A model generated the notes under the pieces. That model made no database searches and was not told where the DNA came from. It saw nothing but the letters and a program-made list of their open reading frames with translations. From IMG/VR virus record IMGVR_UViG_3300044632_002025: 64,000 bases of DNA, one strand, 5' to 3'. This document shows positions 13,201 through 51,243 of this stretch, piece after piece. The first letter of the stretch is position 1; every line of letters begins with the position of its first letter. This stretch comes from a virus. The position numbers and the translations under genes were made by a program.

Positions 13201-16200
13201 GAAAGTTTTGCGGATGTGGATGAATCTACCAGTGTTGGGTTAATCCAACAAGGAATGAAAAGGGTAGAAGCTAACGGTAGAACCTACTATATAACCGGAG
13301 GTACAGGGGAGGGTCAGAGTCAGTTTTACGAATTAATAGATGGTGATTTTAGAAAGGCCACAGGAACAATCGACTCAGACCCTAAAACCCGTGAAAATCT
13401 GATAGAAACTCTAATGCCTAGGGAGGGGAATAATCCCCCCCCAATGGATTTATCAACGGCTGGTATGGGGTCATTCCTAAATCCTAAAATACTGGCAGAA
13501 ATCGCTAAGGAAAATGGGAATCTTAAAAACCGTCAAGCCGCCACATTAGAAGCCCAACAATCAAGAGTTCGGGACTTATTTGGTAATAATGCAGTTTTTG
13601 ATGAGAAAACAGGGAAAGTAAGAGAACAGGATAGTGAGGGTAACAGAGCAGATTTATCTTCTAGTAGTTTCGGTACAGAGGCATTATCCAAAACCCCTGA
13701 ACGTCTGAATGCCTTAATCCGTACTGGGGCAGGTCTAGAGGGAAGTTCTGCGGAGCAAGCCCTAAGAGAAACGGCAAGCAGAAGCAAAATCACCAATCTA
13801 CAAACAATTACTGGTCTATCTTCTGGTAAAACCAAAGGTAAAGAGGGGGAAGCCTTCTTATTAAGTCAAGCAGATGTCTTAGAAACGGTAAGGAGAAATG
13901 AGAAAGAAGGGGCGGACATAGCCAAAACTGCTTCGGAGTTAACACAAGACACAACCAAAGAATTAGAGGAAGCCCTACGGAAAAAGGGACAATTAAAACC
14001 TGCGTGGGATAGAATTAAGAAACAGATTGAGTCTGGAGAAATTGTAGGGGACAGCACAACGTTCCTAGAACAATTTATCACAAAAGCCCGTGAAAAGGTA
14101 AGCGACAATAAAACCCCGTTTGCCGAAAGAAATGCAATGAATGAGAATTTAATTGCATTGACTAAAGATTTAAACACGGATAAACCAAAACCTTTAGAAA
14201 AACCTGGGGCAGTTAAAGAAGGTGTTCCTGCTGACCTAGAAAAGTACCGTCGTCTTATTGACGATATGAACCGGAGCAGAATTGAGCAAGAAAACCAGAT
14301 TCTCCAACTAAGGCAAAAATCTTTAGAATTGGAGCGTCAATCTTTTGTGTTGGCTACGGCATTTAAAGGACAAGTAAATGCTAATTTGGAGCAATTCTTT
14401 GGTATCTTAAGTCAGGCAGAAAATACCCTGTTAGGGAATCAGACAAAACTAAGACAAATAGACCAATTCTTTGTTGACCGTCGGAACAATCTTGCTAATC
14501 AGTTTAAAGATGTAAACCCGCAGGTAGGTGGGGGCATCCAGGACAACTATGAGGGTACGGGGCAACCAGTATTTGTACCTAAAGCATCCCCTGATAAAAA
14601 TGTTAATGCACTATCTAAAGACTTGATAAAAGGGCAATTAGATGCTATCAAAGAGAAACAGAATGAAAGGGCTGAGATTGCTAAACAGAATGAGCTAATT
14701 CAGCGTAATCTTACCCAACAAATAAGAAATGCTGTAGCCCAAACGTTCCAACAAGCCACAAACACAGCAACTGGGTTAGCCTCATCTTTCGGGGGTAACA
14801 GTGAGTTTATGGTAAAAACCACTCAACTCTTTGATGGGGTAAGAACTCAAGGGGTACAATTAGCTCAACAAATACAAGCCTTAAAAGTTATTCAACAGAC
14901 AAATCCTAGTGGTTTTGGGGCGCAGGATGCTAAAGCCCTCTCAGGATTAGAAGGTGTATTTAAGCAAATTCCCAGGATGCTGAAGGAAGCGTTAGGAGAC
15001 GCACTTGCTTCCCTACTCCGTCAGGTAAATACTTTCTTCCAAGACCTATCAGAACGGTCTAGACAAAGAAGTAATGAATTGATGGGTATGGTGATGCCTG
15101 GTGGAGCTTCTTCGGGTTTATTGACGATTGTGGGGGACTTACAAAATAGTCTGTTCAAAAATCAACAAGAGAGTTTAGAACTACAACAAGAATCTTCACA
15201 GATAAGAAGACAAGTAGAGCTAAACCGTTCACTGGGGGCTGTGTTCCCTGACCAATTCTTTGCCCAAAAAGTATCGATGGGTGAGGCATCTATAGGTGTG
15301 AATGATGCAAAAAGAGGGGGGTTAGAGTTAGAAGCTAAAAATCTCCTAGAGACTTCCAAAATTAAAGCCAATATAACCTACTTCAACAGCTTTATTGAGT
15401 TATTTCAAGGAGCTAGAGGTCTTAGCAGAGGATTCAGTAGTGTCTCAGATGCTGTAACAGAAGTAGAGCAAAGACGAGAAGCAATTACTAAATCTATCTT
15501 CGACTTAGAAACTCAAATACAGCTAATGGAATCTCAACTTGAGACCATGAATAGTGTATTTGGTTCTCTGAGTTTAGTTGACCGTGAGAGACTAGAAGAA
15601 GGTAAGAAATATTTAGAGCAACAAAAACAAGCCACAATAGCCCTTCAAAAAATCAATGATGCACTAAGAGGGGAATTAGGGAAATTGGCAATAGCTAAAG
15701 TCCAAGAGGATGCTAGGGGTAATGCTCAAAGTGCATTGATGGAATCTAATTCTGCCCGGTCACAAATTCTCGGAATGTCAGATTCCCGGTCTACTCGTAG
15801 GGAAGCCGCTTCTATAGATTTAGAAAATTCCCGTATTGATGCAATAAAAAGAGTAACAGAAGCTACTCTCAAAAGTGCTGAAGAAAGAGCTAATATAGTT
15901 GCAGAATTAGCCAACATGGACTCAAATGCGGCTAAGGGTATGTATAACACACCTGAAGCTCAAGCGGAAATAGCTAGAAAATATGTTGAGTACCAATCTC
16001 GACTCATAGCAATAGACAATGAAGTTGGGAATGCCCGTGTGATGGCGTACAACAACTTAAAAGTCCAAGTTGAAAAATCTGCCTTAGAGTTGGATGAAGG
16101 CTATCGTGCAAACGTTCAAATAGCCAATACTGTTGATGGGGCTTTCTCCAATCTTTATGATATTCTCACCGACTCCAGTAAATCTTTTGCTGATAGAATG

Positions 16201-21784: not shown

Positions 21785-23394
21785 TTAACCCTGAGAAAAA
21801 TTTTCAAGACTTCTTTTTTAGTCTAAGTTTAAAAACAGAGTCTAAACTTGCCAATGTTCCCGTGTCCGTGGTTAGTGAAGATTTAAAAATTTATAATGGG
21901 AGAATGGGTGGAGCAATTGCTCTGGGTATTGTAGGGGGGGCAATCGGGTTTTTCACGGGGGGTACAAGTTTCCTTTTCACCGGTTTAACTCTAGGATTTG
22001 CTCTGGGTTCTGCCTTATTTGGCTCAGAGCCTAAAAAGAAGAAAAAACCCCGTGCGCCTAGTTCTTCTTTTTCCTCCATGTCTGGGGATGATATAGCAAT
22101 ACAAGGCTCCGCTATTCCAATTATTTATGCTAGTAGAAGCAAAAACCCTAAAGGGGGAGTTAGGGCTACTGGGAAACTAATTGCTTGTAAAGTGGAAAAT
22201 CTTGGTGATTCAGCTTATCAGTACAATATTATTGCCCTTAGCTTAGGGGAAATAGGCACAATAGATTCCAGTCTAATGCTTATCGATGGCCAAACAATAG
22301 AGAGATTCTATGCTGAAGATTTAACCTTTAATTATTTAATTGGGACTCCTACTTACTATAATGATGCGGCACAGGGTAGTTTACCTACCGAATTTAACTT
22401 CTTTGGTCAGTGTATAACTCCTAACACCTATAATCTACTTGGTTCGTCCAGAAGGGCGCAATCTAAATCTACCTCCCAACAAGGGACAACGGTAGCAATT
22501 AATACTTGGCAAACCTCTAATTGTTATGTTTCTGGGCGCAATGGTAATTCAGTCCTAATAACAAAAAATGCGGGTTCAACAAGTAACCCCGATGCCTACG
22601 CCCAGTCTAATGAAAATGTTAGGGATGGGGGCGGTAGTATAGGTTGGAGTCTAACAAACAATCGTAGGGTAGCGGTAGGTTACGGTACTAGGGGTAGTAG
22701 CAATATTACTTATGGCATCCTTAACGACATTGTAGTTACCCCCCAGCCTGTCCCCCCGTCTCCCCCTCCCCCCGCCGAACCCCTTACTGTTACTACTTAT
22801 CCCGTCGTTTTAATCCATAACGGTTCACCAGTAGCTATCTCCGGTGCAACTTGGTCAGTAAATGACACCTTTCAAGTTGAGTTGGGTAATGACGGGGGTA
22901 ATAAAGTGGTTAAATATAGCCAAAATGGAAATCTCCTAGTGGCGTACTCCGGTGTGAATTGGGGTAGTCTTCCAGCTAAGGGGGTAATTTATGATATAGG
23001 GACATCCATAAACATAACTTCTTCTGTGGGTATAAGTTTCCCCACTGGTAATTTTGGGGTAGATGTTGTAAACTCTACTCAAGATACTGCCACACTGGTA
23101 GTCTATGAAGATGAGCAAGATTCTATTGAAAATTGGAGTCGCTTCACACCTGCTGAAATTTATGAGGTTAACTCTGCTAGATTTAGGGTACTAAAGAAAA
23201 ACGATGCAAGCCGTCAAATCACTATTACCCCCTCAGTCAATATATCAGAAGATGATGACATTTATTGTGTTTGGGAATCTTATTATCAAACCAGTAAAAA
23301 AGTGACCAATATTGTGATAAATTTTGAAGGTATGTTTTTCTCTCGTAGAAAACCGGTTAATGCTGATTCTGGGAAAGCAGGAGGTAAAAAGTAA
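21781..23394 (+). CDS. tail tip protein with N-terminal glycine-zipper membrane-like segment
   Basis: GGAIALGIVGGAIGFFTGGTSFLFTGLTLGFALGSALFG followed by KKKKKP. Overlaps its neighbours (GTGA/TAATG). Confidence 0.4.
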   Translation: MINPEKNFQDFFFSLSLKTESKLANVPVSVVSEDLKIYNGRMGGAIALGIVGGAIGFFTGGTSFLFTGLTLGFALGSALFGSEPKKKKKPRAPSSSFSSMSGDDIAIQGSAIPIIYASRSKNPKGGVRATGKLIACKVENLGDSAYQYNIIALSLGEIGTIDSSLMLIDGQTIERFYAEDLTFNYLIGTPTYYNDAAQGSLPTEFNFFGQCITPNTYNLLGSSRRAQSKSTSQQGTTVAINTWQTSNCYVSGRNGNSVLITKNAGSTSNPDAYAQSNENVRDGGGSIGWSLTNNRRVAVGYGTRGSSNITYGILNDIVVTPQPVPPSPPPPAEPLTVTTYPVVLIHNGSPVAISGATWSVNDTFQVELGNDGGNKVVKYSQNGNLLVAYSGVNWGSLPAKGVIYDIGTSINITSSVGISFPTGNFGVDVVNSTQDTATLVVYEDEQDSIENWSRFTPAEIYEVNSARFRVLKKNDASRQITITPSVNISEDDDIYCVWESYYQTSKKVTNIVINFEGMFFSRRKPVNADSGKAGGKK

Positions 23395-25247
23395 TGGGTG
23401 GTAAGACGCAAGCTGACGCATCCAATTTTGAAGATATTTATCCCTATGGGGTAGCCTTTGATGTATACATACAACCTCTGACTAATGAGGAAGGTGAACC
23501 AATAGCTTTTTCTGAGGGAAATTGGCAATTCTTAAAGACAATTTTTATTAGGGAGAAATCTGAGAATGCTAAACAGTTTAAGTTTGAGATTCGTAATCTC
23601 CCTTATGGTCGCTACTATGTTAAGTTAAAACCGTATACTACTGCCCCTAGTAGCACATCAAATACCATAAAATTAAGTTGTACGGGGGAAAATGCGGAAA
23701 TAACTACCCCTTACACTCTAAGAGGAAAAAATGTAGGCTTAAGGGGGGAGTTCTCATCGCAACCTTCTAACCAAGATATGGCAAAAACCATTAACTATGA
23801 TGAGGAAAAGAGAATAGTATCGTCAGAAAGTGGTGCGCCCATCCGAATTACCACTGTTTCAGAAGTTGTCATACCCTCTGAAATAAGTAAAATTGCTAAC
23901 TACAAGGGTGTAGCAATAGTGGGAGTGAAAATAAAGGCCTCTGACCGTATAAGTTCATCACCTGAAGTATCCTTCTTTGTCTCAGAAGGGAGAAAGATTC
24001 GTAATCATCTTCACTATGGGACTCAACAATCTCTGACCCCTTCAAATCAAATTACTGATACTACCGTAGACTATTCAGAAATCCCTGAGTTAACCATTGG
24101 TCAAACCAAAGTAAGAAACTTAGATACTAAACAAGAGGGTGGTGTTACAGCTTTATCTAATAACCGTATCACGGCGGGTATTACCCTAAACCCAAAAGAC
24201 CGCTATATTGTTTTTAATTATGCGGCTTCTAATTATTTCCCAGATATTTATGTGGATTGGCTAATTAACCCCGAAGGTGGTTTAGGTGCTGTTATTGATG
24301 GGGATGAGGACATTGATTACTCCTCAATTGTAGAGACTAGAAAATTTGTCCGAGAGAATGGATTCTTTTGGGACGGGGTTATCTCGGAAACAGAAAGTTT
24401 ATCTTCTAAAGTAACTCAAGAAGCTGGTCTATCCTTACTCTACCCTTATTCACCTAATGGGTTATTCGGATTGACTATGGAGAACGAGGATAGATTACCA
24501 ATAGCAGTTTTTAACTCATCTAACATCCTTAAAGATTCCTTTGAAGAAAGTGTTCTACCTTGGCAAGATACCAGCGTTAACCAAGTGATTGTGGTCTATA
24601 CGGATGGTACTGATAATCAACGCCCTGCTACCGCCGTTATAGCCCGTACACAAGAATTAGATAATGGCTGGGAAAAGTTAAACTCCATCACTATCCAAGC
24701 TCCTTCGATTACCAATCCTGAACAGGCTAAAACCGTGGCAGGGGTAACTCTTAACTCTAAACGATTACAAGACCGTAACATTCGATTTAGAACTGCCACT
24801 CAGGGTTTATTCTTATCCCCTGGTGAAGCCATTTTAGTTCAACATCAGACCACTGAATTTAGTTATGAACTGTCTGGTTATGTGACTGAGACGGAGGATT
24901 ATGATACCTTGGGGCAAACACAAAGAGTTCTTTTATCTCGTTACCCTTCACCATTTATAACTTCCGATTACCGTGCCACAATCCAACTCCAGACTACCGG
25001 TGAAGTTATCACTGATTTGCCATTTACTCTGGAACAAGTGGGTGGTAAAACTTATATGAATCTTAGTGAACTACCGTCGCCCGTATCCCTGTATGACCCT
25101 GTGGTTGTTGGTAGAGATATGATTGAAAATAAAGTTTATCGTATACAATCTCTTTCCATAAGTGAATCAGGAGAAATAAGTATCGATGCCGTAATTTGGT
25201 CGGATAAGCTTTTCGATTTCACTAATCTGGAGTTTATTTTCCAATGA
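23394..25247 (+). CDS. host-specificity (lambda J-like) central tail fibre protein, by position
   Basis: 617 aa, translationally coupled after the K/I-like genes. Confidence 0.45.
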   Translation: MGGKTQADASNFEDIYPYGVAFDVYIQPLTNEEGEPIAFSEGNWQFLKTIFIREKSENAKQFKFEIRNLPYGRYYVKLKPYTTAPSSTSNTIKLSCTGENAEITTPYTLRGKNVGLRGEFSSQPSNQDMAKTINYDEEKRIVSSESGAPIRITTVSEVVIPSEISKIANYKGVAIVGVKIKASDRISSSPEVSFFVSEGRKIRNHLHYGTQQSLTPSNQITDTTVDYSEIPELTIGQTKVRNLDTKQEGGVTALSNNRITAGITLNPKDRYIVFNYAASNYFPDIYVDWLINPEGGLGAVIDGDEDIDYSSIVETRKFVRENGFFWDGVISETESLSSKVTQEAGLSLLYPYSPNGLFGLTMENEDRLPIAVFNSSNILKDSFEESVLPWQDTSVNQVIVVYTDGTDNQRPATAVIARTQELDNGWEKLNSITIQAPSITNPEQAKTVAGVTLNSKRLQDRNIRFRTATQGLFLSPGEAILVQHQTTEFSYELSGYVTETEDYDTLGQTQRVLLSRYPSPFITSDYRATIQLQTTGEVITDLPFTLEQVGGKTYMNLSELPSPVSLYDPVVVGRDMIENKVYRIQSLSISESGEISIDAVIWSDKLFDFTNLEFIFQ

Positions 25248-33246: not shown

Positions 33247-33870
33247 TTGTTTATGAACACTGATAACTGGTTTATGCTCGTTCCTTCTAGAATAGCCTCC
33301 TCCAAATTAGGGCTTCACCCCCATACCCTTAGAAAATATTTTGATGACGGTTTGATTAAGGGGATTAAAAACCCCGCAGGTCAACGATATTACGATGTTG
33401 AATCCTATTTAGCCGACCCTCTTGACAAACCCTCAGTTATCTGTTATGCTAGGGTTAGTTCAAGAAAACAGTCTGCTGATTTGGCTAGACAGGTCGATTT
33501 CTTGAAATCAGTTTACCCCGATTCGGAGATTATTACAGATGTCGGTTCTGGACTTAACTTCAAAAGAAAAGGTATTCAAACCCTATTGGACAGATTACTC
33601 TCAGGAGATTAGTTCACTCTTGCTATCTCCCACCGAGATAGACTCTGCCGATTCGGATTTGAATTGTTCCAATACCTTTTCCTCAAGAACGGTGGAACAA
33701 TCGTGGTTCTCAACAATACTCAAACAAGTCCCGAACAAGAACTTACCCCCTACTTACTATCAATCCTCCATATTTTCAGTTGCAGAGTCTACGGACTTAG
33801 AAAAAACAACAAAAATATCGAGGAAGATAAGACTTTACCCCGACAAAACTCAACAAAATCTACTGAATGA
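33247..33870 (+). pseudogene. tnpA: IS607-type serine recombinase TnpA interrupted by one in-frame TAG (33610-33612)
   Basis: MerR-like HTH, catalytic YARVSSRKQ..DLARQ, then ...LLSGD*FTLAISHRDRLCRFGFE...SPEQEL...FSCRVYGLRK, all in a single frame. Confidence 0.8.
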
Positions 33871-34969
33871 GCTAATCTCTCAATATCGGTTTGTTTACAA
33901 TAAAACTGTAGATTTGCTGATAAACGGTAAAATTGGGGCTAATTGTGATTTAAAGACTAAGAAAGAAAGAAAAGGTTTGTCAAGCTATGACATCCGTGAC
34001 ACATTCTTTCAATTTTGGTTGGAGAAACACACTTGGTTAACCAATTGCATAAACATAAATACAGTAAAGGAGGCTATCACCGAAGCTATCAATGCCCAAC
34101 AAGTAGGGTTTGCCCAATTAAAAGCGGGGTTAGTTGAAAGGTTTGAGTTAAAATTCAAATCTAGAAAAAAGCCCCGACAAACTATCAACCTAAAAAAGGA
34201 AATACTCTCAGCTAAGGGAGTGTTAGCCCCCCGAAACCTAAAACTAGAAACCCCCCTAAAATCAGACACAAGGGGTAGTTTTGATGGTCTAACCCTCACA
34301 ACTACTGGGGGATTGTTCTACCTAATTTATACTGAAGATATTGCTAATAATCCAGAAGTCGAAAACCAAGACCTAAAGATTGTAGCATTAGACCCTGGTG
34401 TTAGAACTTTCCAAACTATTTTCTCGTCTAATGGGGTTTTCGGTAAATTTGGTCAAGAAGCCATTAAAAGATTGGCTAAACTATGCCATAAAGCAGACAA
34501 AATCCAATCTAAAATAGCTAAAACCAAAAACCAAAGTCGGATTAATTATCTAAGAATGTGGCAACAACGAACCACATTAAAGATAAGAAATCTGAGGAAA
34601 GAACTCCACCACAAAATTAGTAGATTTCTAGTAGATAACTTTGATGTAATCCTGCTACCCTGCTTTAACACCGGTGAAATGGTTAAAAAGAAGGACAGAA
34701 AAATCAATAAATCTACTACCCGTTCAATGTTAAATTTTGGACATTATGAGTTTAAGGAATTATTAAAGTTCAAAGCCAATAAATTTGGTAAAAAACTAAT
34801 AATAGTTTCTGAGGCTTATACCTCCAAAACCGTATCATGGACAGGGGAAATAATAGCTAATCTAGGTGGGAGGAAAGTAATCAAATCTCAGAGTAACGAA
34901 AGTTTAGACAGAGATTTAAATGGAGCCAGAGGAATCCTAATAAAATTCTTAACTGAGCTACCCCAATAG
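33539..34969 (+). CDS. tnpB: TnpB (OrfB) RuvC-like transposon-associated protein; true start uncertain (GTG 33692 possible)
   Basis: RKIRLYPDKTQQNLLNELISQYRFVYNK, ALDPGVRTF (RuvC-I Asp), AYTSKT, DRDLNGARGI (RuvC-III Asp). Confidence 0.8.
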   Translation: MSVLDLTSKEKVFKPYWTDYSQEISSLLLSPTEIDSADSDLNCSNTFSSRTVEQSWFSTILKQVPNKNLPPTYYQSSIFSVAESTDLEKTTKISRKIRLYPDKTQQNLLNELISQYRFVYNKTVDLLINGKIGANCDLKTKKERKGLSSYDIRDTFFQFWLEKHTWLTNCININTVKEAITEAINAQQVGFAQLKAGLVERFELKFKSRKKPRQTINLKKEILSAKGVLAPRNLKLETPLKSDTRGSFDGLTLTTTGGLFYLIYTEDIANNPEVENQDLKIVALDPGVRTFQTIFSSNGVFGKFGQEAIKRLAKLCHKADKIQSKIAKTKNQSRINYLRMWQQRTTLKIRNLRKELHHKISRFLVDNFDVILLPCFNTGEMVKKKDRKINKSTTRSMLNFGHYEFKELLKFKANKFGKKLIIVSEAYTSKTVSWTGEIIANLGGRKVIKSQSNESLDRDLNGARGILIKFLTELPQ

Positions 34970-35300: not shown

Positions 35301-37181
35301 TTATTCCATCCCCGAAACCATAGATTTAACTTCCTCTAGGGGGATTTCCAACTTCTGCGATAATTCAGCCATTAAGGTATCTAAAATCCCTTGTAGGTTA
35401 TCTCCTCCCTCAACATACCCTACACCGTTTAGAACCTCAACTACAGTAGCATCAGTAGCCATAGCTAAAGCACTTGCCACTTCCTGGATTTGCATATCAA
35501 GGTCAACTGCTACCGTGGCTCCTGTTTCACCTTCAGCTTCAGCTTCTGGTTCTGCTTCTGCCTGAATCTCTTGCATATTTCGCATTTGTTCAGATATGTT
35601 TTCCCATTCTGCTTCAGGGTCAAATCCTAACAATTCTTGTGCTGTCTTAACTGATACAATCTGATTCAGGACTAAAGAACTTAATTCCTCCATAGATAGT
35701 TCAAAATGTTCTTCTGGTTTGAAAGATTCCTTAGTTTCATTTTGAATAGTATTTTGTTCATCAATAGAAGCATTAGGAGTTAAAGCTCGTTGTAAATCTT
35801 CAGTTACCAATCTCATCGCAGTGTCAGCGATTGGTGTTTCTAGTTTCTCCAATCGGGCAAGGCGGTCTACCTTAGCATCAACAGAATCTAGAACGAACTC
35901 ATTCAACCCTGAAACTGAAATCATTTCGGCTTTATCAGGGGGTAAACCGTGGGCTAAGGCTACCAACTTATAACAGTTCTCTAGGAATCTTAACAATTCC
36001 TCACCATAGGCGGTCAAAGCTTGTTCTTGGCTGATAAAGTCCATACTTTTGGCCACACCCGACTCTTGCATTGGTCTATCAGTACCAGCAGAAATACCGT
36101 TACTAAATACTAAATCTTTGATTCTAGATTCAATACCTTGTAAATAGCCTGTAATAGTGGAAATCGCTGAACCAGTAGTCTCATTAAAGCTAAATCCTGA
36201 CCCAATCAAAACTCTATGATTACCAGTTTGTTGTTTGGCTTCTTCAATGTCCACCATTTTATCAACAGTTTCCGCCATCGGAGTAAATAGTCTTTGAATC
36301 TGTCCAGCCAAATTAGCAGTATAGGAAAGATTATTGTGAACTCGGATGTGTTCTAGAACCAAATAAATGGCTTCTTTGACTACCCATAGATTCTCTGGGG
36401 CTTGAATCTTAACTACCGGAATACTATCTCTACCATGTTCAATAGTTGATTTCTTACTGACCATGTATTCTTTAGTTTCTAAGTCTAAACCCATGACAGG
36501 ACTAGGTGTACCATCTTTTGCTAATTCTACTGGACACGAATAAATATTTATTTCTTTATCATCAATAAAAGTCCAGTTTAGGTATACTCTAGGAATACCC
36601 ACTGGGTCATATTCAGTCATTAACTCTCTAATTTTTATCCATTGTAACCGTCCATCCTTTTCGTCATAGTGGACTACTTTACAGGGGTCATATAGGGCAA
36701 TATAAGGCATTAAACCTTGTTCATCTTGTTCCTTACGGTTTTTAGGTAGGTTCTCAGTATATTCAATATCAATTACTGCATAAACTCGTTCATACTTCAA
36801 AAGTCTGTAAAATACTTCTTTAATAAAGTTCTTTTCTTTTTGGTTATTTCCATTTACGGATTCCCTAAATTTAGCCCAGAACTTCCCCTCGTCTCCCTGA
36901 GTTCCCAAACCATTAATAACATGATTTGAAGCAGTCATCCGATTCATTAATTGGGCTAAACATTGCCCTAAAATAGGTGTGTAGGTAAAAATCTTTTTGC
37001 GGTACTTATAGACTTCTGCATCCTCATCTGGCTTTTTGCAGAGGTATTTCTCCAGATTTTCCCTAATCTGATTACCCCCCGCTAACAAATCGTCAGCAGT
37101 CTCATAGATGTATTTTTTAGCCAGTACATCGGGGTGATAAGTTTCTAACTGATTAAACGGGACTTTCTCAGGGTATCGCAT
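35301..37181 (-). CDS. portal protein
   Basis: 626 aa immediately downstream of TerL, with an acidic C-terminus. Assigned by position and size. Confidence 0.6.
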   Translation of the reverse strand: MRYPEKVPFNQLETYHPDVLAKKYIYETADDLLAGGNQIRENLEKYLCKKPDEDAEVYKYRKKIFTYTPILGQCLAQLMNRMTASNHVINGLGTQGDEGKFWAKFRESVNGNNQKEKNFIKEVFYRLLKYERVYAVIDIEYTENLPKNRKEQDEQGLMPYIALYDPCKVVHYDEKDGRLQWIKIRELMTEYDPVGIPRVYLNWTFIDDKEINIYSCPVELAKDGTPSPVMGLDLETKEYMVSKKSTIEHGRDSIPVVKIQAPENLWVVKEAIYLVLEHIRVHNNLSYTANLAGQIQRLFTPMAETVDKMVDIEEAKQQTGNHRVLIGSGFSFNETTGSAISTITGYLQGIESRIKDLVFSNGISAGTDRPMQESGVAKSMDFISQEQALTAYGEELLRFLENCYKLVALAHGLPPDKAEMISVSGLNEFVLDSVDAKVDRLARLEKLETPIADTAMRLVTEDLQRALTPNASIDEQNTIQNETKESFKPEEHFELSMEELSSLVLNQIVSVKTAQELLGFDPEAEWENISEQMRNMQEIQAEAEPEAEAEGETGATVAVDLDMQIQEVASALAMATDATVVEVLNGVGYVEGGDNLQGILDTLMAELSQKLEIPLEEVKSMVSGME

Positions 37182-37237: not shown

Positions 37238-39013
37238 TTAATAGCCAGAATTATAATTTCCGTAGAGACTATCATCTTGGGGGACACTGGGTATTAGGGT
37301 ATTTGCACCCATACTATCGATGATATTCTCAATATTCCGATGCTCCAAAGTAGCCAAAACGTAACGTAAAGCATCGCAAAAATGGTCTCTTTGCCCTTCA
37401 GCCACTTTCTCGGTAACATTCCCTTCTTTAGACTCTCGGTGATATGCAGTCATGTCCTCAAAAACCCTTTTACAGGATTTGGCAATAAAAAGTTTATCTT
37501 GGTGTAATAAAGTGTTAACCACCCCATTACCTTCTGATACCCTATTATAGCCCTCCATTAACTTGGGAACACCCGCTTTTCTCATGGTTAAAATTCTTCC
37601 CGGTTGTGACGGGTCAGCATATCCACGGTTGACACCATGCGTTCTGGCTAACTCAATGGCTTTCTCATTGTGGACTCGTTGTTCAATGGCCGCTTTAGGG
37701 TTGGGATTTTCCCAACAATCAATCACAAAATAAGCGGCTCCCCGTCTTCCCACCACTACTAGGGCAGGATTCACATCTCCCCAGTCCACTCCGATATATA
37801 CTTGGTCAAATTTTGTCGGTAAATCGTCATCATCCAGTAAGTGTCTCTTATCTAAATCTGAGAATATCTGACCATCAAAAGATTCCCAAGATGCTAAAAA
37901 TTCTTGTCTAAAGATTTTTTCGGGTAATGACTCTTTGGTTCTTTGGATTTCATCAAGGGGAATAAAGGGATTATCATAAACTGTTTTTAAAAAACTAGCC
38001 CAATTAGGAACTTCACCACCTTGTAGGTAAAGACTATGGAAAAATGTACCTGCCCCCTTGGGCGTACCAATAATTAGAGATGTACTATTTTTAGTATCAA
38101 CTAAAGCAGGGCGAATCACTTCCGTCCATACAATAGGTTTTATATCTTGCATCTCATCTAATCCAGCAAAATATATCTTCAACCCCCGCATATTGTCGCC
38201 GTTATCTTCATTGGCTCCTCTGAGGATGATGTCTGGTTTATTTCCTTTAAAAACGATTCTGCATTCAGACTTAAAAATTCTTTTAACTGCTGGGTGTCCA
38301 TCTAGAATATTTACAAGTGGTTCCCAGTGGATTTGTTTAGCCTGTTTTAAGCTAGGCATAACGAGCAAAACGACGGGGGGTGAAGCTTTATCATAGTTGC
38401 CGTTGTAATTAATAGCCCTTTCGATTAAAGTAGTTAATAGTAGCCTGGAATTATGGGTAGGGATGTTACTTTTACTACATAGGAAAATCCCTCCTTCTAC
38501 TTGAATACACTTAGTTCGATGTCTTCCAACAGGGATTACATCGGCTATAAAAAAGCTTTCCCACGGATGCAAAATTTTACGAGGAACAGATAAATTAAGT
38601 TTTTTACTTCCCTTTTGAATGTTTTGATGGTAATAGAATATTTCCTCAGTAGTCCATGTGTTAGACTCTAACTTACGGTTTAGCTCCAAAACCCACTCAT
38701 GGTTTTTCCCTGCTCTGATAACCTGTCCATTTTCAAAGACAATATCGTAGCAATCATCTTCAAATACCTCGGTAGCCGCTAAAACTTTTACAGGTAAACC
38801 CTGTTCATTATATACAGTGTCCCCAGTGAAAATTTTCTTAATCGGTTTATAACCATTTTTGGTCAAAATAGGGGTGTTTTCTTCTAAATTTTTCCCAAAT
38901 CTCCTCGATGAAACCAAAACCTTGAATCTGGCAGGGTCTCCGAATACTTCTTGTTGTCCCGGGTGTAAATATAATTTTAATTTTCCAGGTTTTGCCATTA
39001 TCTCTACGCTCAA
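37238..39013 (-). CDS. terL: terminase large subunit, intein-containing
   Basis: Walker A SSRRFGK|S is reconstituted after removing aa 42-188. Also Walker B IYFAGLDE and nuclease motifs IGVDWGD and DHFCDALRY. Confidence 0.85.
   Translation of the reverse strand: MSVEIMAKPGKLKLYLHPGQQEVFGDPARFKVLVSSRRFGKNLEENTPILTKNGYKPIKKIFTGDTVYNEQGLPVKVLAATEVFEDDCYDIVFENGQVIRAGKNHEWVLELNRKLESNTWTTEEIFYYHQNIQKGSKKLNLSVPRKILHPWESFFIADVIPVGRHRTKCIQVEGGIFLCSKSNIPTHNSRLLLTTLIERAINYNGNYDKASPPVVLLVMPSLKQAKQIHWEPLVNILDGHPAVKRIFKSECRIVFKGNKPDIILRGANEDNGDNMRGLKIYFAGLDEMQDIKPIVWTEVIRPALVDTKNSTSLIIGTPKGAGTFFHSLYLQGGEVPNWASFLKTVYDNPFIPLDEIQRTKESLPEKIFRQEFLASWESFDGQIFSDLDKRHLLDDDDLPTKFDQVYIGVDWGDVNPALVVVGRRGAAYFVIDCWENPNPKAAIEQRVHNEKAIELARTHGVNRGYADPSQPGRILTMRKAGVPKLMEGYNRVSEGNGVVNTLLHQDKLFIAKSCKRVFEDMTAYHRESKEGNVTEKVAEGQRDHFCDALRYVLATLEHRNIENIIDSMGANTLIPSVPQDDSLYGNYNSGY
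38450..38890 (-). other. 147-aa class-3 mini-intein inserted in the TerL P-loop
   Basis: NLEENTPILT...GKNHEW (block B His and Trp)...TKCIQVEGG (block F Cys)...IPTHN|S (block G Thr-His-Asn, +1 Ser). Confidence 0.75.
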
Positions 39014-42240: not shown

Positions 42241-42972
42241 TTAACCGTTTATAGTGCTGAAAAATCCTTCTATTGCCTCTCTCACTTCTGGGTGATTTGC
42301 CGGATAAACTGCTATCTCTCGCATTGCCCCGTTGACTAACCGTTTCTCTTGTTGACTTAGTTGACGACAACTCTTTTTAACGTATTTTCCAAGTTGAGAC
42401 CGATTATCATGGGAAGGGTTAAATCCCATTTCTAGTGCAATCTCAACAACTCCTTGCAAGGAATCCCCAGTTAAAGTAGCCTGACTTGGCATTAAATCGG
42501 AAATAGCATGGTCAATTAGAAATTGGGCTAATCGGGGGTTATTTCGAGAAATCAATCCCTCAATTTCCACAACTGCCTTAGCTGTTTCAACAGCAACCTG
42601 ACGAGATGTTAATTTAGGCTGTTCTACATGGTGCAGACTAACTGTGCCAGTTGTGACTAGCGTTTTGATTTGCTGTAGCATCCAGATTTTGAACTTCACC
42701 GAACACCAACCAGCAAACTCTAAAGCGACTTCTTCAATTGCCCATGTTCCAGTAGTTGCAGGTAAGCCCCCAACGTTAGACACCATTACGGGAATCCCCG
42801 CAATGCCCTCAAACTCAGTCAGGAACTCGGTTGTAGCATTTAGTCGATTCCAATCATTAATCCGTTTCCCACTAGCCTTAGCCATATCGGTTAGACAAAC
42901 CCAGACCCGACCTTCACGATTTTCAAAGCGAATGTTGTTGGAGTTGAAATCAAAAACAGATAAATTAGACAT
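42241..42972 (-). CDS. KilA-N/Bro-N-type DNA-binding domain protein
   Basis: LSVFDFNSNNIRF...VWVCLTDMAKASGKRINDWNRLNATTEFLTEF. Confidence 0.6.
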   Translation of the reverse strand: MSNLSVFDFNSNNIRFENREGRVWVCLTDMAKASGKRINDWNRLNATTEFLTEFEGIAGIPVMVSNVGGLPATTGTWAIEEVALEFAGWCSVKFKIWMLQQIKTLVTTGTVSLHHVEQPKLTSRQVAVETAKAVVEIEGLISRNNPRLAQFLIDHAISDLMPSQATLTGDSLQGVVEIALEMGFNPSHDNRSQLGKYVKKSCRQLSQQEKRLVNGAMREIAVYPANHPEVREAIEGFFSTING

Positions 42973-43065: not shown

Positions 43066-43701
43066 TTAACCTAGTGCTTCTAAAATTTTGGCCAGAATTG
43101 GATGGCGAACCGACGTACCCTTCGGAAAGAAAGTTACCCCAACACCTTCCACATCATTCAACCGGTTTGCGGCAATTGGTAAATAGGCTTCAGTTTTCAA
43201 ACTACATTGGGTGGGGTCTCCGATAATACAGAGCTTTGAACCGTGTGCAATTCTAGTTACCACGGCTTTAAACAGACGTTCAGTAGCGTCCTCAGCCTCA
43301 TCAAAAATAATAAAGGTATTAGACAAACTAGCTCCTTTAATATTACCGATGTGGCTAATTTCTATAGTAGAACGGAGCTTCTGGAAATCTTTAGGGTGGG
43401 CAATTTCAGAAAGATTAGTCCATAGGGGAGTTCCCAATGAATCTACTTTTTCCCCATAATCACCTGGCATAGCCCCAATATCAACCTCATCCCTGTCTCT
43501 TACAAACGGTCTTACATATAAAACACTATTAATGGGGTCATCTGGATTATTAAGAGCTAAAAGGGCGGAATACATCGCAATCAGAGTCTTACCAGTACCA
43601 GCCTCACCAACACCAATAGAAATGGTATTTGTCCGTAAAGACCGTAGAAACTGTTCTTGATAGCGGTTCTTGGGTTTCAATCCGTGGGCAATATTGACCA
43701 T
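43066..43701 (-). CDS. phoH: PhoH-like ATPase
   Basis: Walker A GEAGTGKT, Walker B FIIFDEAED, 211 aa. Confidence 0.75.
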   Translation of the reverse strand: MVNIAHGLKPKNRYQEQFLRSLRTNTISIGVGEAGTGKTLIAMYSALLALNNPDDPINSVLYVRPFVRDRDEVDIGAMPGDYGEKVDSLGTPLWTNLSEIAHPKDFQKLRSTIEISHIGNIKGASLSNTFIIFDEAEDATERLFKAVVTRIAHGSKLCIIGDPTQCSLKTEAYLPIAANRLNDVEGVGVTFFPKGTSVRHPILAKILEALG

Positions 43702-45278: not shown

Positions 45279-46184
45279 ATGTCTGAATTTACCAACGCCC
45301 CTATTATTGTTAACGACTTTAGGGTAGCAGTGTACCAGATTTACCATCAGTACCAGTTTATTAAAGCCAATCTTCCTGCCGCTACTGCCTCAACTTGGTT
45401 AAAGGCTACATGGGCTATTACATTGAATCGGGGGTTTACTGGTCTTCCTTATTTCCCCCATACAGTGGTGGTAGTAGATGATAGTAGCCCTTACTGGAGA
45501 GAAGCCTACCTTAGAGAGAGAGGATTCCCAGAGTATAAAGGTGGTAGACCCTCTAAAACCGATGAATGGTATGAGGTCAACCAAGCTGGGTTAGATTATG
45601 TAACTGCCCCTAACAGCCCTATTCACTATTTAAGATTCCCCCAATTTGAGGCAGATGATATAGCCTCTGCCATTGTAAGAAGCAAAAGTAATAGACTGGT
45701 TTTTCTCCACACGATAGACTCTGACTGGATGGGTTTGGTTAACAATGGTGTCCTCAACAGTATGACCTTAGACCAAGCCCTATTGGAACCCTTTGTGGAA
45801 CCCACCTCTCTCTGGGTCAGTATGGCGCAATGGACTCCTCGGTTCCGTGATGAGGCGGGTGTATTTGCTCACACCTTAAAACGGGAAAAACGTAAAATTG
45901 ACTCTCCCCCCCAAATTTGGGATATAAAAGTTGAAAAAGGCGATAAGAGTGATAATCTCATCAAAGGTAGTCCTATCGAAGTGATTAATCTACTCAATCC
46001 CCCTCCTGAATTTGATATTTTACAAAGAGCTAACTACGCACCACAGGTACGTCAAGTGGTTAACTCCGGTGAACCCAATTCTAGTTTTAAGCACCTGAAG
46101 AAAGCCCACGACTGGTTTGTTGAATCTGGTCAAAGAGTAACAGTACATGGGTACTATGACTTTTTAAGTCCAGAGTTGACTTGA
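45279..46184 (+). CDS. 5'-3' exonuclease / flap endonuclease-like protein
   Basis: VVVDDSSPYWR...YKGGR...FEADDIASAIV resembles the PIN-like 5' nuclease motifs. Confidence 0.55.
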   Translation: MSEFTNAPIIVNDFRVAVYQIYHQYQFIKANLPAATASTWLKATWAITLNRGFTGLPYFPHTVVVVDDSSPYWREAYLRERGFPEYKGGRPSKTDEWYEVNQAGLDYVTAPNSPIHYLRFPQFEADDIASAIVRSKSNRLVFLHTIDSDWMGLVNNGVLNSMTLDQALLEPFVEPTSLWVSMAQWTPRFRDEAGVFAHTLKREKRKIDSPPQIWDIKVEKGDKSDNLIKGSPIEVINLLNPPPEFDILQRANYAPQVRQVVNSGEPNSSFKHLKKAHDWFVESGQRVTVHGYYDFLSPELT

Positions 46185-48323: not shown

Positions 48324-49166
48324 ATGACCTTGAATCCTGCTAAAACCGTTACCTTTGACCAGCTAAAAGCTGATTCAGAGACTTTAAAAGACTTACAGAC
48401 AGAACTAGCCAGAATAGGCTTTTATAAATTAGAAATTGACGGTATTTGGGGGGAAGGGACAGAACTAGCCCTTAAACAAGCCTCTGAGAAATATAAACTT
48501 AATAATTTTGAAAAACAAGTTATCGGTAAGAGTTTCATCACAAAACTGTTGGCAGATACTGCTAAACCGGCGGATACCCTTAAATACGATTTGAGTCCAG
48601 TGGCGGAGGCAGATTTTCAAGCCTTGGCTAAAAGTCTTAATCTAGAGGTCGCCCTATTGAAAGCAGTTGCCGAAGTTGAATCTTCTGGTCGAGGACTTCA
48701 GGATGATGGCAGACCCGTCGTTAGATTTGAATCCCACGTTTTCTCTAGTATGACTAACCGTAAATTTGATTCTTCCCATCCTAAACTCTCTACTCGCAAA
48801 TACTCTCCCTTATTGAACTCCCGTAGTTCTGAGGGGGAATACCTACGCTTAGAGGCGGCTATGCTTTTAGACCGGGAAGCGGCATTACAATCAGCATCCT
48901 TTGGGGCTTTCCAGATTATGGGATTCAACTATGAAGTGGTTGGCTACCCTACAGTTGAAGAATTTTTCCAAGCCATGCACAGCCCTAAAGACCAGTTAAA
49001 AGCTTTAGGGCAGTTTTTAGTTCGTAATGCTTTGGTGGTTTCCCTAAGACGAAAAGATTTTAAAGGGTTTGCTCGTTCTTATAATGGCCCGGCTTACAAC
49101 CAACATCGCCCACCTTATGATGAGCGTATCCGTACTGCATACGAAAAACATTTGAAAAACATTTGA
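48324..49166 (+). CDS. endolysin: peptidoglycan-binding domain plus N-acetylmuramidase (DUF3380-like) domain
   Basis: LARIGFYKLEIDGIWGEGTELALKQ, then FGAFQIMGFNY...FARSYNGPAYNQHRPPYDERI. Confidence 0.75.
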   Translation: MTLNPAKTVTFDQLKADSETLKDLQTELARIGFYKLEIDGIWGEGTELALKQASEKYKLNNFEKQVIGKSFITKLLADTAKPADTLKYDLSPVAEADFQALAKSLNLEVALLKAVAEVESSGRGLQDDGRPVVRFESHVFSSMTNRKFDSSHPKLSTRKYSPLLNSRSSEGEYLRLEAAMLLDREAALQSASFGAFQIMGFNYEVVGYPTVEEFFQAMHSPKDQLKALGQFLVRNALVVSLRRKDFKGFARSYNGPAYNQHRPPYDERIRTAYEKHLKNI

Positions 49167-49197: not shown

Positions 49198-49226
49198 TTG
49201 ACAATTCTGGGGGGGTCTGTTACACT
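49198..49226 (+). promoter_or_regulatory. promoter TTGACA-N17-TACACT
   Basis: Coincides with the track's TTG start, so the gene start was moved to ATG 49261. Confidence 0.55.
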
Positions 49227-49260
49227 GGGTTCAACAAGGACAAGTAATCTGCGGCCAGTG

Positions 49261-51243
49261 ATGACGAGAAAGTTAACTGCAAGAGAAAAAAATAGCGTGG
49301 ACAAATTCAACCATGAGGGTTGTGACCCCCATGAAAACCGATTTGAGAACCAGCAAGAACAAAAAACCCCTAGAGATTCTGATGATGAGGGTCAGTTTAT
49401 GGGGGATTTCACCCGTTATCGGGAGGGAATGCGAGTTCTGGCTCAACATGGGCTAGAGCTTATCCCCCATCCAAAGGGTGATTTAGCTGGACACAAAATT
49501 TATATTGACTGTCCCTACACGGTAGCTCCCACTGGGGATGGCTACAAACCACCTTCGGATTTCCATTGGAAAAAGAAAATTGTGCCAATGGAACACCAGG
49601 ACACCCTGGAGGACGCAGTAAACATGATTAAGTCCCATTGTAGCAAGCAAGTTTGGGAATACTGGAAACCTTTAGTGTTTCACAATGGGGACAATCGTAG
49701 ACCAGTTTTTAATACTGCTCTTTTAATGTTGGCTGGTGAGCAAACCAAACGATACAATTCTGGCATTAGTTTAAGGGGTGGTACTGGTGGGAAATATATA
49801 GTTCCCCAGAAATCTTGGTTTGACCCCCGCATTCAGGAGGTTACAGCCCAAGATTTGTTGTCCATCTTTCCCGAAGCAGAACGTCAAATGTTCCTCTTAT
49901 TAGTCGGGAGAATTGTGGTTGGAAGTGGTGATTCCACAACTGTTGAGGGAATCGACATTAACCATAAGTTTCGCTCTATGGGCATTGTCTTGGGTGAACC
50001 AGGCTTGGGTAAATCGGCTCTAATGACCTTTGTAATGGACGCTCTGAAAAATTGCGGCTATGACATCCAAACCATGGCTGATAACTTTGGCAGATTTGGT
50101 TGGGGGGAAATTGCTGTCTCCCATCTGGCTTATCTGGATGACCTCACCAAATCCACCCAACAAAAAATGTTACACTCCGGGCTGACTAAGCAATTGGTTA
50201 GTAACGGTGTACTACGCACCGAAAATAAAGGAGTTGACGCAATAAACGTTAAGTCTCGAACTGTCATAATTGCTTGTTCTAACGAGTGGAATGCTCGTGA
50301 CTTGTATAATGCTGATGACGGTATTAAGGACAGGGTAAATATGCTCTCTATTTACCAGGAGACAGAATTAAAGAAAATGGTGGGTACTGGGTTATCCTCT
50401 GGTAGCCCTGATTTCCGAACTTGGCATCATTGGAATTATCTGGCTAAAAAACTTAATACCACTACCGATGTTTTGGGGTTTTGGCTACTCCACTTGTCCT
50501 CCGAAGAGTTCCTCAAAGTGGCAGGTTACACTGAGTCCGTATTGCCCCGTGACCCCAAAAAATTTCCTTCGCTATCAGATGAAACTTATAATCAGATGCT
50601 GAGGATGACTGGGGCTACTATGGCTCAAACCAATCCTAACCGTCTGGAAGAAACCATTGTAGCCCTCCATAAAGAACTGAGAATCCGTACAGTTCAAAAT
50701 GCTACAAAGGATATGGTTCACTTCTGGAGATTCTGTATGGTTTTTTCGGGAATTGACTCCAAGAGTGGGATTGGTGAATACTACGAGTCTAGTGCTAACT
50801 TTGATGACCAACTCGCAGTGTTCTTTCTCGAAGCTCAAAGAGCCTTTATGGGAAATAAAGGTATTGATTTATGTCGCTATTTAAAGTCTGATTTTGAGAA
50901 AAGGGGGAAACCTAAAGGTCATCCCTACGCCATAGTAGAATCCGTGTCCGCTACAGGATTAAATAATGCAATACTAAAAGGCTTGGAGTTAGCTTCCCAA
51001 CACAATAGCCCCGCTAACATCATAGAAAATATGCTTAAGGGGTTAACCACTACTGGAGGTTACGAACTTCGTAGGGACTTATCCGTAATCGTGAGCTACT
51101 ACGAAGGCAGTAAAAGCTATGACCCCCTATATAACCAAATTATCTCAGATGTCCAAGACTTAGACGATGAGGACGTATATCTAGGGTTTCACAAAGTCCT
51201 AACTAACCTTGCTAAGGGGTTTTTAAAACTGATGGTGGATTAG
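49261..51243 (+). CDS. primase/helicase-like protein with SF3 (P4/D5-type) helicase domain
   Basis: Walker A GEPGLGKS, Walker B LAYLDDL, motif C IIACSNEW. Confidence 0.6.
   Translation: MTRKLTAREKNSVDKFNHEGCDPHENRFENQQEQKTPRDSDDEGQFMGDFTRYREGMRVLAQHGLELIPHPKGDLAGHKIYIDCPYTVAPTGDGYKPPSDFHWKKKIVPMEHQDTLEDAVNMIKSHCSKQVWEYWKPLVFHNGDNRRPVFNTALLMLAGEQTKRYNSGISLRGGTGGKYIVPQKSWFDPRIQEVTAQDLLSIFPEAERQMFLLLVGRIVVGSGDSTTVEGIDINHKFRSMGIVLGEPGLGKSALMTFVMDALKNCGYDIQTMADNFGRFGWGEIAVSHLAYLDDLTKSTQQKMLHSGLTKQLVSNGVLRTENKGVDAINVKSRTVIIACSNEWNARDLYNADDGIKDRVNMLSIYQETELKKMVGTGLSSGSPDFRTWHHWNYLAKKLNTTTDVLGFWLLHLSSEEFLKVAGYTESVLPRDPKKFPSLSDETYNQMLRMTGATMAQTNPNRLEETIVALHKELRIRTVQNATKDMVHFWRFCMVFSGIDSKSGIGEYYESSANFDDQLAVFFLEAQRAFMGNKGIDLCRYLKSDFEKRGKPKGHPYAIVESVSATGLNNAILKGLELASQHNSPANIIENMLKGLTTTGGYELRRDLSVIVSYYEGSKSYDPLYNQIISDVQDLDDEDVYLGFHKVLTNLAKGFLKLMVD

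Follow-up and report, generated by a model that had tools for sequence, protein, structure and literature searches.

A putative class 3 mini-intein interrupting the Walker A motif of a cyanophage large terminase

The gene encoding the large terminase (TerL) of a Mic1-like cyanosiphophage carries an in-frame insert of 147 codons between the lysine and serine codons of the Walker A motif (RRFGK|S). Judged from sequence comparisons and a structural model, the insert is very probably a splicing-competent class 3 mini-intein. It lies on the minus strand at 38450..38890 of the window (the whole 64,000-nucleotide stretch analysed, IMG/VR record IMGVR_UViG_3300044632_002025) and comprises 147 residues (Asn1 to Asn147; 16.9 kDa). 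Its assignment draws on homology, on fold and on its absence from intein-free homologues. An earlier note on this DNA had proposed such an intein at residues 42-188 of a 591-residue reading frame, which maps exactly onto this interval.

The terminase gene

The open reading frame list places TerL on the minus strand at 37238..39013 (591 aa), just as the earlier note had quoted it, with a TTG at 39013 as the upstream limit. Because a 99%-identical protein (P0001) begins MAKPGK at the ATG at 38998, the true start is probably this ATG. The precursor gene then spans 37238..38998 (minus strand; 586 codons) and encodes a protein of 586 aa with a computed mass of 66.5 kDa, and removing the insert in silico leaves a terminase of 439 aa and 49.6 kDa. 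The spliced length of 444 aa given in the earlier note therefore holds from the TTG but becomes 439 aa from the probable ATG, and of the two product masses predicted there, that of the intein (17 kDa) stands whilst that of the terminase (52 kDa) has to be lowered. With numbering from the ATG, the intein occupies residues 37-183 and its catalytic cysteine, Cys169 in the 591-aa count, becomes C164; this is Cys128 of the intein.

TerL has a T4-like (Terminase_6) layout, with an N-terminal Walker A ATPase and a C-terminal RNaseH-like nuclease. In a Pfam scan, Terminase_6C matched residues 417-554 with 23.6 bits (cut-off 22.6), and Terminase_6N matched residues 213-385 with 20.2 bits, slightly under its cut-off of 22. 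In all, 181 TerL-family homologues were found, and segments of the protein are 65-78% identical to the TerL of Microcystis phage Mic1. The Walker A sequence SSRRFGKS is visible only once the insert has been removed in silico. On the basis of an alignment of TerL homologues (A1), the 36-residue N-extein (38891..38998, minus strand) ends in SSRRFGK, the start of Walker A. The C-extein (37238..38449, minus strand), defined by the same alignment and by the Terminase_6N and 6C matches, accounts for 403 residues and the stop codon. Beginning with SRLLLT, it supplies the missing serine of Walker A (GK|S), the remainder of the ATPase and the RNaseH-like nuclease.

Position of the insert

Alignment A1 locates the insertion point precisely. 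Fifteen intein-free homologues are contiguous across the site, reading RRxGK|SRLL without a gap, and this is the reading obtained when the insert is taken out of the window TerL (SSRRFGK|SRLLL), bearing out the earlier claim that its removal restores the P-loop. R37, R38, G40 and K41 (591-aa numbering) are invariant across the 21 homologues aligned, and K41 and S189, the residues flanking the insert, are likewise invariant. The DNA of Microcystis phage Mic1 is also uninterrupted at this site. In four homologues this point is occupied by a larger intein, but none of the TerL homologues in the alignment has a structural insert devoid of intein blocks there.

The boundary at residue 1 of the insert is fixed by the intein-free homologues and by an alignment that runs end to end from residue 1 of the class 3 DnaB intein 6bs8. 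A boundary shifted by one residue, giving a class 1 start, was rejected, since the extein would then read GKN|RLL in place of the invariant GKS.

Homology and fold

The insert resembles known inteins far beyond what chance would produce. As a single sequence it matched a class 3 DnaB intein in the PDB with E=9e-8 (phmmer), and a profile of its family matched the class 3 DnaB inteins 6bs8 and 6rix end to end with E=3e-38. An exhaustive phmmer search of 1.8 billion proteins returned 156 matches below 1e-10, whereas a word-indexed search for homologues of the insert by itself matched only two truncated, near-identical fragments. The curated models, a type of check that the earlier note had recommended, stayed below threshold and were not decisive on their own: Pfam Hint_2 gave E=0.067 on the insert, and the NCBIfam model TIGR01445 (intein_Nterm) gave 18.1 bits against a cut-off of 24.5.

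An AlphaFold2 model of the insert, built on a 22-sequence alignment of mini-inteins, has a pLDDT of 88.9 and a pTM of 0.84 (a 6-sequence alignment gave a pLDDT of 49). When this model was searched with Foldseek, the first eight matches were MchDnaB1 (6rix/6riy), MsmDnaBi1 (6bs8) and gp41-1_WCT (6riz), the last being gp41-1, a class 1 intein into which the WCT triplet had been engineered, with target-normalised TM-scores of 0.81-0.87. All 50 PDB matches listed are HINT folds (inteins, BIL, hedgehog), the best with E=5e-10. By sequence and by model, then, the insert is a HINT-fold intein, and both place it closest, among solved structures, to the M. smegmatis and M. chimaera DnaB mini-inteins of class 3, for which either splicing has been demonstrated or the structure was determined as that of a class 3 intein.

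Intein blocks and class 3 hallmarks

The four Hint-domain blocks (A, B, F and G) named in the earlier note were correctly assigned; all lie on the minus strand. Block A (NLEENTPILTKNG; 38852..38890) begins with Asn1, which is not a nucleophile, and contains the near-invariant residues T6, T10 and G13. Block B (...IRAGKNHEWVL; 38687..38728) supplies Gly61 (B:7), His64 (B:10; codon at 38699-38701) and Trp66 (B:12; codon at 38693-38695). Block F (HRTKCIQVEGGIFLC; 38477..38518) contains Cys128 (F:4; codon TGT at 38507-38509), the predicted initiating nucleophile. Block G with the following Ser+1 (SNIPTHN|S; 38447..38470) provides Thr145 (G:5), His146 (G:6) and Asn147 (G:7), encoded at 38450-38458, with Ser+1 at 38447-38449.

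The insert thus ends as inteins do, with His-Asn followed by a nucleophilic Ser at +1, and it combines a non-nucleophilic residue 1 with His B:10, Ser+1 and the WCT triplet (Trp66, Cys128 and Thr145), whose members align to their counterparts in 6bs8 and 6rix. These class 3 hallmarks, whose residues the earlier note had already listed, are kept among the 126 best-mapped intein relatives drawn from the 1.8 billion proteins. His B:10 and Trp B:12 are each present in 123/126, and Cys F:4, whose counterpart in 6bs8 lies in the region of the catalytic Cys118 (VRCVEVD), in 124/126. In block G, Thr and Asn are found in every relative (126/126) and His in 122/126. The +1 residue is Ser, Thr or Cys in all but one (Ser 88, Thr 29, Cys 8; 125/126). 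Other residues important in the class 3 prototype (PMC2807308) are also kept in the insert: Lys F:3, Ile F:5, an acidic residue at F:8 and an aromatic one at F:15. The block B histidine is essential in that prototype (PMC2807308). In 88 of the 126 the intein follows the GK of a P-loop, many of the hosts being terminases. Of ten nearest relatives sampled, six are TerL proteins in which the intein comes directly behind the P-loop lysine; these six represent four Pfam families, and four of their inteins are minis of 133-146 aa.

Two positions are in minority states. Residue 1 is most often Ala (93 of 126), followed by Asp, Pro, Glu and others, and is Asn in just two; at B:7, Asp (67 relatives) is more frequent than Gly (25) or Ser (14). 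The Asp of the DnaBi1 DxxH motif (B:7) has been proposed to aid the first step (PMC6195587), and we considered whether Gly at B:7 might be a decisive mark of inactivity. This was rejected, given the 25 relatives with Gly and the splicing retained by the prototype when its B:7 Ser is mutated to Ala (PMC2807308).

Size, alleles and intein-site turnover

The insert is a mini-intein without a homing endonuclease between blocks B and F. In a Pfam scan its 147 residues gave no match to LAGLIDADG, HNH or Hom_end models, in agreement with the earlier note, and it is collinear with mini-inteins of 132-165 aa. The same-site inteins of four related cyanophage TerLs (P0004, P0005, P0007 and P0008) are about 340 aa long, and that of P0005 gives a weak Hom_end match (a LAGLIDADG signal; E=0.0022). 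Most likely the mini-intein descends from such an endonuclease-bearing intein of ~340 aa, which persists at the same site in these relatives, and would now be inherited along with the terL gene.

Comparison with a 99%-identical metagenomic allele (L002) revealed five synonymous differences and one non-synonymous difference in the intein (pN/pS about 0.05, p=0.0017). The C-extein has a pN/pS of 0 against the same allele, so constraint on the intein resembles that on the exteins. At this low pN/pS the intein is under purifying selection and kept functional, on the evidence of one pair of alleles and few events. All five synonymous differences fall within the last 18 intein codons; this cluster may be a single recombination patch, and the selection test therefore rests on few independent events.

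The same allele exposes a second intein site (site b, LIIG|TPKG; 38066..38067, minus strand), which is empty in the window. By blastn, L002 differs from the window by a clean insertion of 873 bp between 38067 and 38066. The inserted sequence encodes a class 1 intein, and the P0001 protein matches Intein_splicing and LAGLIDADG_3 there. The TerL family has three intein sites, at which presence or absence varies between near-identical phages.

Proposed maturation and alternative explanations

We infer splicing and its chemistry from these observations, and the steps proposed here are modelled on the published class 3 pathway. terL would be translated as the 66.5-kDa precursor with its ATP-binding loop divided (GK | 147 aa | S), and for this reason the precursor should be unable to act as a packaging ATPase. 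Cys128, positioned by His64 and Trp66 of block B and by Thr145 of block G, would attack the Lys(-1)-Asn1 peptide bond to form a block-F branched thioester. The hydroxyl of Ser+1 would then receive the N-extein, giving a block-G branched ester, and cyclisation of Asn147 would free the 16.9-kDa intein. Finally, an O-to-N acyl shift would generate a normal Lys-Ser bond, restoring SSRRFGKS in an active TerL of 49.6 kDa.

The intein might instead have decayed and no longer splice, in which case terL would be a dead gene and the phage defective or reduced to a prophage remnant, or else another protein would package the DNA. The minority residues Asn1 and Gly B:7, the sub-threshold scores of the curated Hint and intein models and the loss of the endonuclease could all be read in this way. 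So could two short metagenomic contigs (P0121/L003 and P0122) that end inside the intein linker; the first of these was set aside, however, as L003 turns into unrelated DNA at window position 38595 and is most likely an assembly chimera and not a product of decay. Decay is nevertheless improbable, for the catalytic and near-invariant positions are all intact, pN/pS against L002 is low in the intein and nil in the C-extein, the 586-codon frame is open throughout, and the same mini-intein was recovered from independent metagenome samples.

Splicing by a different route, for example by direct attack of Ser+1 on the N-terminal junction, the mode of class 2 (KlbA-type) inteins, would equally suit a non-nucleophilic residue 1, which is typical of that class too. 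[quoted passage not shown] Least credible of all is a permanent HINT-like structural insertion retained in the mature terminase. It would leave GK parted from S/T in the phosphate-binding loop, and every catalytic residue has been preserved, the terminal Asn and Ser+1 among them. The earlier note had held that homologues with a block-less segment would count against an intein; in the homologues, instead, the segment is either missing or represented at this site by a larger intein that has the same blocks. Class 3 splicing of a mini-intein remains by far the best explanation.

Possible regulation of packaging

If the mini-intein splices, splicing may be a regulatory point for packaging, which the earlier note had raised as no more than a possibility. 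Cys47 of the intein (38750..38752, minus strand) is matched by the Cys of RPCYVVEF in the alignment with 6bs8, and the position is Cys in 93/149 relatives. Its counterpart in M. smegmatis DnaBi1, Cys48, which lies outside the blocks, is needed for splicing and forms a disulfide with the catalytic block-F cysteine (PMC6195587); this disulfide is reversible, arises under oxidative stress and blocks splicing. By analogy, the insert could act through Cys47 as a redox-gated packaging switch in a phage of an oxygenic phototroph, although we consider this unlikely. The redox state of a Microcystis-type host varies with light; were the idea correct, TerL maturation, and with it packaging, could halt when oxidative or high-light stress sets in and start again on reduction. 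Conservation of Cys47 may be unrelated to regulation, because the DnaBi1 equivalent is needed for splicing itself.

Significance

Class 3 inteins in the P-loops of phage TerL proteins are already well known, having been described since 2010. The insert adds a cyanophage example and leaves the general understanding of inteins unchanged. In annotation, with Pfam and NCBIfam models below threshold on the intein, the terminase would be annotated as oversized or odd, with a broken Walker A, whereas recognising the intein yields the true 439-aa enzyme. Together with Mic1 and the metagenomic alleles, the window shows a single cyanophage TerL family with two mechanistic classes of intein at three sites, in varied combinations. 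Since these combinations differ even between 99%-identical genomes, the family lends itself well to studying, in nature, how inteins are gained and lost. A class 3 intein of 147 aa with Ser+1, from a mesophilic freshwater phage, could also be a candidate for use in protein engineering.

Comparison with known systems

The nearest known systems are the DnaB inteins of M. smegmatis (DnaBi1), M. chimaera (DnaB1) and M. leprae, HINT-only minis of 139-145 aa that, as here, follow the P-loop lysine of an ATPase. Like the insert, they combine a non-nucleophilic first residue with the WCT triplet, a His-Asn end and Ser or Thr at +1, and splicing has been demonstrated experimentally for the class 3 minis Msm DnaB-1 (139 aa) and Mle DnaB (145 aa) (PMC5222942). 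Their host, however, is a bacterial helicase and not a phage terminase, and identity to the insert is about 21-24% in structural alignments. They have Ala at residue 1 and Asp at B:7 (DxxH) where the insert has Asn and Gly (GxxH), and their linker between blocks B and F is shorter than that of the insert, which is predicted to be partly helical. The DnaB intein of mycobacteriophage Bethlehem, the class 3 prototype (Tori et al. 2010, PMC2807308), shares the signature and the predicted mechanism but differs in its length (341 aa), its endonuclease, its initial Pro, its Ser at B:7 and its Thr+1.

According to two accounts of actinobacteriophage inteins (Kelley et al. 2016, PMC5050341; bioRxiv 2025, 10.1101/2025.01.02.630785), TerL is the protein most invaded by inteins in these phages, and class 3 inteins are common in it. 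The TerL1-a site described there lies between the invariant Lys and Thr of Walker A, the position of the insert. The hosts are phages of Actinobacteria and mostly Terminase_1 proteins, unlike the cyanophage Terminase_6 TerL described here. The class 3 inteins of the 2025 survey are 225-359 aa long, so that no mini of the insert's size is among them.

Microcystis phage Mic1 is the closest sequenced phage. Its TerL exteins are 61-78% identical in pieces and its portal protein 61%, and in both phages the portal gene comes after terL. The kinship is seen at the protein level only; when 20 kb of the window was compared with a phage collection by megablast, there was no match. The Mic1 TerL is also interrupted by inteins, but these are two class 1 inteins at other sites and its P-loop is intact, whereas the window TerL has only the class 3 mini in the P-loop. 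The first Mic1 intein (Cys...Asn|Thr) has an endonuclease and lies at G|TPKG in the ATPase domain; the second (Cys...Asn|Cys) is a mini in the nuclease motif DHxC|DAL (PMC7156551). For Mic1 too, control of packaging by splicing has been proposed by its authors (Yang et al. 2020, PMC7156551).

The terminase gene and its genomic setting

The frame that the earlier note had assigned to the large terminase, TerL, is borne out. It runs from 37238 to 39013 on the minus strand (591 codons from TTG at 39013, the longest ORF), and in a Pfam scan Terminase_6C scores above the cut-off and Terminase_6N slightly under it. The start codon probably does not stand: P0001, a metagenomic homologue with 99% identity, begins MAKPGK, which argues that the real start is most likely the ATG at 38998, to which the alignment with Microcystis phage Mic1 also points. 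This alters the numbers (586 aa) and leaves the substance unaffected. Among deposited phages, the large terminase of Mic1 is the sole close relative of TerL. The next gene downstream (35301..37181, minus strand) is portal-like, with 61% identity to the Mic1 portal, and the TerL–portal order is that of Mic1; judged from these genes, the window comes from a Mic1-like cyanosiphophage. A megablast of 20 kb of the window against the phage collection found no nucleotide-level match.

Upstream of the tail genes, represented by Phage-tail_3 (23394-25247), lies a 2,612-aa ORF (10234-18072, plus strand) with no Pfam match. At that length it could be the tape-measure protein of a phage with a very long tail; the tail of Mic1 measures 400 nm. 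An IS607-like mobile element (33247-34969, plus strand) adjoins the portal gene. Its 121-aa ORF has a MerR-type HTH and just the beginning of a serine-resolvase domain, so that it is apparently truncated, and overlaps a 476-aa TnpB (HTH_OrfB_IS605, OrfB_IS605 and Cas12f1-like TNB). Further along are genes for a KilA-N domain protein (42241-42972), PhoH (43066-43701), a 5'-3' exonuclease slightly under the Pfam cut-off (45279-46184), an N-acetylmuramidase with a peptidoglycan-binding domain (48324-49166) and a DUF5906 protein (49198-51243).

A class 3 mini-intein in the P-loop

The TerL insert occupies window positions 38450..38890 (residues 42-188 of the 591-aa frame), exactly as first proposed. 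We aligned 21 members of this cyanophage TerL family. Fifteen read RRxGK/SRLL without a gap across the site, the window and P0001 have an insert of 147 residues, and P0004, P0005, P0007 and P0008 have one of ~340 residues at the identical position; homologous terminases thus either lack the segment or have an intein in the same place. The Lys and Ser bordering the insert are invariant, and deleting the insert in silico yields SSRRFGKS, a canonical Walker A motif. A boundary moved by one residue was ruled out because the invariant GKS would become GKN. Both ends are fixed independently by a profile of 22 mini-sized relatives, which aligns to the M. smegmatis DnaB class 3 mini-intein DnaBi1 (6bs8) from first to last residue (E=3e-38).

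Sequence and structure searches support a HINT fold. With the insert as phmmer query against all PDB chains, the three best matches were class 3 DnaB mini-inteins (M. chimaera 6rix and 6riy, M. smegmatis 6bs8; E-values 9e-8 to 2e-6), the alignments taking in TPxxT...HxW of the N-terminal half as well as the C-terminal motif xxCxxV...PTHN. Across 1.84 billion representative proteins, an exhaustive HMMER search gave 2,803 matches below 1e-3 and 156 below 1e-10. The AlphaFold model made with the alignment of mini-sized relatives is confident (pLDDT 88.9, pTM 0.84). Its top eight Foldseek PDB matches are MchDnaB1, MsmDnaBi1 and gp41-1_WCT (6riz), a class 1 gp41-1 intein engineered with the WCT triplet; all 50 matches listed are HINT domains. 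Curated models fall short on 38450-38890 (Pfam Hint_2, E=0.067; NCBIfam intein_Nterm, 18.1 bits where the cut-off is 24.5), and no Hint or intein domain match was found in P0004, P0162 or P0197, related TerLs that have class 3 inteins. The intein group will probably escape automated annotation.

Class 3 inteins are defined by a non-nucleophilic start, a WCT triplet and Ser or Thr at +1 (Tori et al., PMC2807308). The residues read from the DNA match this signature and uphold the earlier class assignment: Asn1, His64 (B:10), Trp66 (B:12), Cys128 (F:4) and Thr145-His146-Asn147 (G:5-7), followed by Ser+1. Lys F:3, Ile F:5, an acidic F:8 and an aromatic F:15, further residues important in the mycobacteriophage Bethlehem DnaB prototype, are also kept. 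We tabulated the 126 of the 150 best relatives in which both intein ends could be mapped. Conservation is near complete at B:10 (His, 123/126), B:12 (Trp, 123/126), F:4 (Cys, 124/126), G:5 (Thr, 126/126) and G:7 (Asn, 126/126); residue 1 is Ala in 93, Ser in three and never Cys or Thr, +1 is Ser in 88, Thr in 29 and Cys in eight, and the two residues preceding the intein are GK in 88.

Splicing competence and proposed route

With an intein between GK and S, the ATPase can exist only if splicing takes place. Two features might mark it as inactive: Asn at residue 1 is rare (2/126), and Gly stands at B:7 in place of the Asp that DnaBi1 has there as part of a DxxH motif, proposed to assist in positioning the N-terminal junction (PMC6195587). 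However, at B:7 Gly ranks second in frequency (25/126) and a B:7 Ser-to-Ala mutant of the Bethlehem prototype splices normally (PMC2807308); therefore neither residue was taken as a sign of inactivity. The metagenomic contig L002 (ENA ERZ27271802) carries the same gene, with 98.8% nucleotide identity over a stretch holding most of the C-extein, and differs from the window at 25 of 586 TerL codons. The C-extein shows 16 synonymous and no non-synonymous differences; the intein shows five and one (pN/pS ~0.05, p=0.0017 against neutrality), with the caveat that the five synonymous changes are possibly one recombination patch. All five lie in the intein's last 18 codons and belong to a cluster across the C-terminal junction, in which eight of the 25 differences, all synonymous, fall within 23 codons (TerL codons 166-188 in ATG numbering, window 38435-38503). 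This cluster may be a short tract taken over, through recombination or gene conversion, from an allele of greater divergence. Because the catalytic residues are intact and purifying selection is seen, the best reading of the sequence is that the intein is splicing-competent.

On the established class 3 pathway (PMC2807308, PMC5222942, PMC7664689), Cys128 would attack the Lys(-1)-Asn1 bond to give a block-F branched thioester, and transfer onto Ser+1 would give a block-G branched ester. Cyclisation of Asn147 would then free the 16.9-kDa intein and an O-to-N shift would restore a Lys-Ser bond, converting a 66.5-kDa precursor to a 49.6-kDa TerL. [quoted passage not shown] The intein keeps Cys47, which corresponds to Cys48 of DnaBi1. 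Under stress, Cys48 forms a disulfide with the catalytic Cys of DnaBi1, and it is also required for splicing itself (PMC6195587); because of the latter, conservation of Cys47 is no proof of regulation. Splicing is, as the earlier note suggested, a possible regulatory point for packaging, with Cys47 as one concrete lead.

Origin and polymorphism

As the earlier note had held, there is no homing endonuclease in the 147-aa intein, in which a domain scan detected no endonuclease family. The ~340-aa inteins of P0004, P0005, P0007 and P0008 are 38-44% identical to it in the splicing blocks, and that of P0005 has a weak Hom_end (LAGLIDADG-type) match. Mapped relatives are mostly 320-370 aa, with 26 minis of 132-165 aa. 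The usual explanation, that a full-length ancestor lost its endonuclease, fits. The GC content of the intein (35.8%) is somewhat under that of the exteins (40.2%) and the window (40.8%).

Three intein sites are seen in the family alignment (window 37238-39013 with P0001-P0023): a, the P-loop K/S (class 3); b, G/TPKG (class 1 with endonuclease); and c, the nuclease motif DHx/C..N/CDAL (class 1 mini). Site b, in the ATPase motif LIIG/TPKG at 38066/38067 on the minus strand, is empty in the window; in L002 (4850-5722; protein P0001) it holds a cleanly inserted 291-aa class 1 intein with a Cys start, an HN/T end and a LAGLIDADG-like middle, and the site is flanked by synonymous differences at codons 308, 311 and 314. 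The window has a only, P0001 a and b, the Mic1-like P0003 b and c, several TerLs b only and many none. This polymorphism is a more interesting by-product than the intein itself.

A second metagenomic contig, L003 (P0121; 1399-1670), is 93% identical to the window as far as 38595, inside the intein linker, beyond which its sequence is unrelated and holds an ORF on the other strand; P0122 ends ~10 codons before this breakpoint. The linker may be variable or rearranged in the population, but assembly chimerism is probably the cause of both breaks.

Comparison with known inteins

The P-loop Lys/Thr site of mycobacteriophage TerL is described by Kelley et al. as a 'classic' insertion point (PMC5050341), and a 2025 survey of actinobacteriophages reports 287 class 3 inteins, which occupy just four host proteins and lie mostly in TerL and Cas4 (10.1101/2025.01.02.630785). 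Among ten nearest relatives sampled, six are TerLs as well; they represent four Pfam terminase families, their inteins follow the P-loop Lys, and four of the six inteins are minis. Many terminases also came up in a search of a viral structure library. The two inteins reported in the Mic1 TerL, in contrast, are class 1 and lie at other sites (PMC7156551). For this cyanophage lineage, a class 3 intein in the P-loop is thus new, although already known as a kind.
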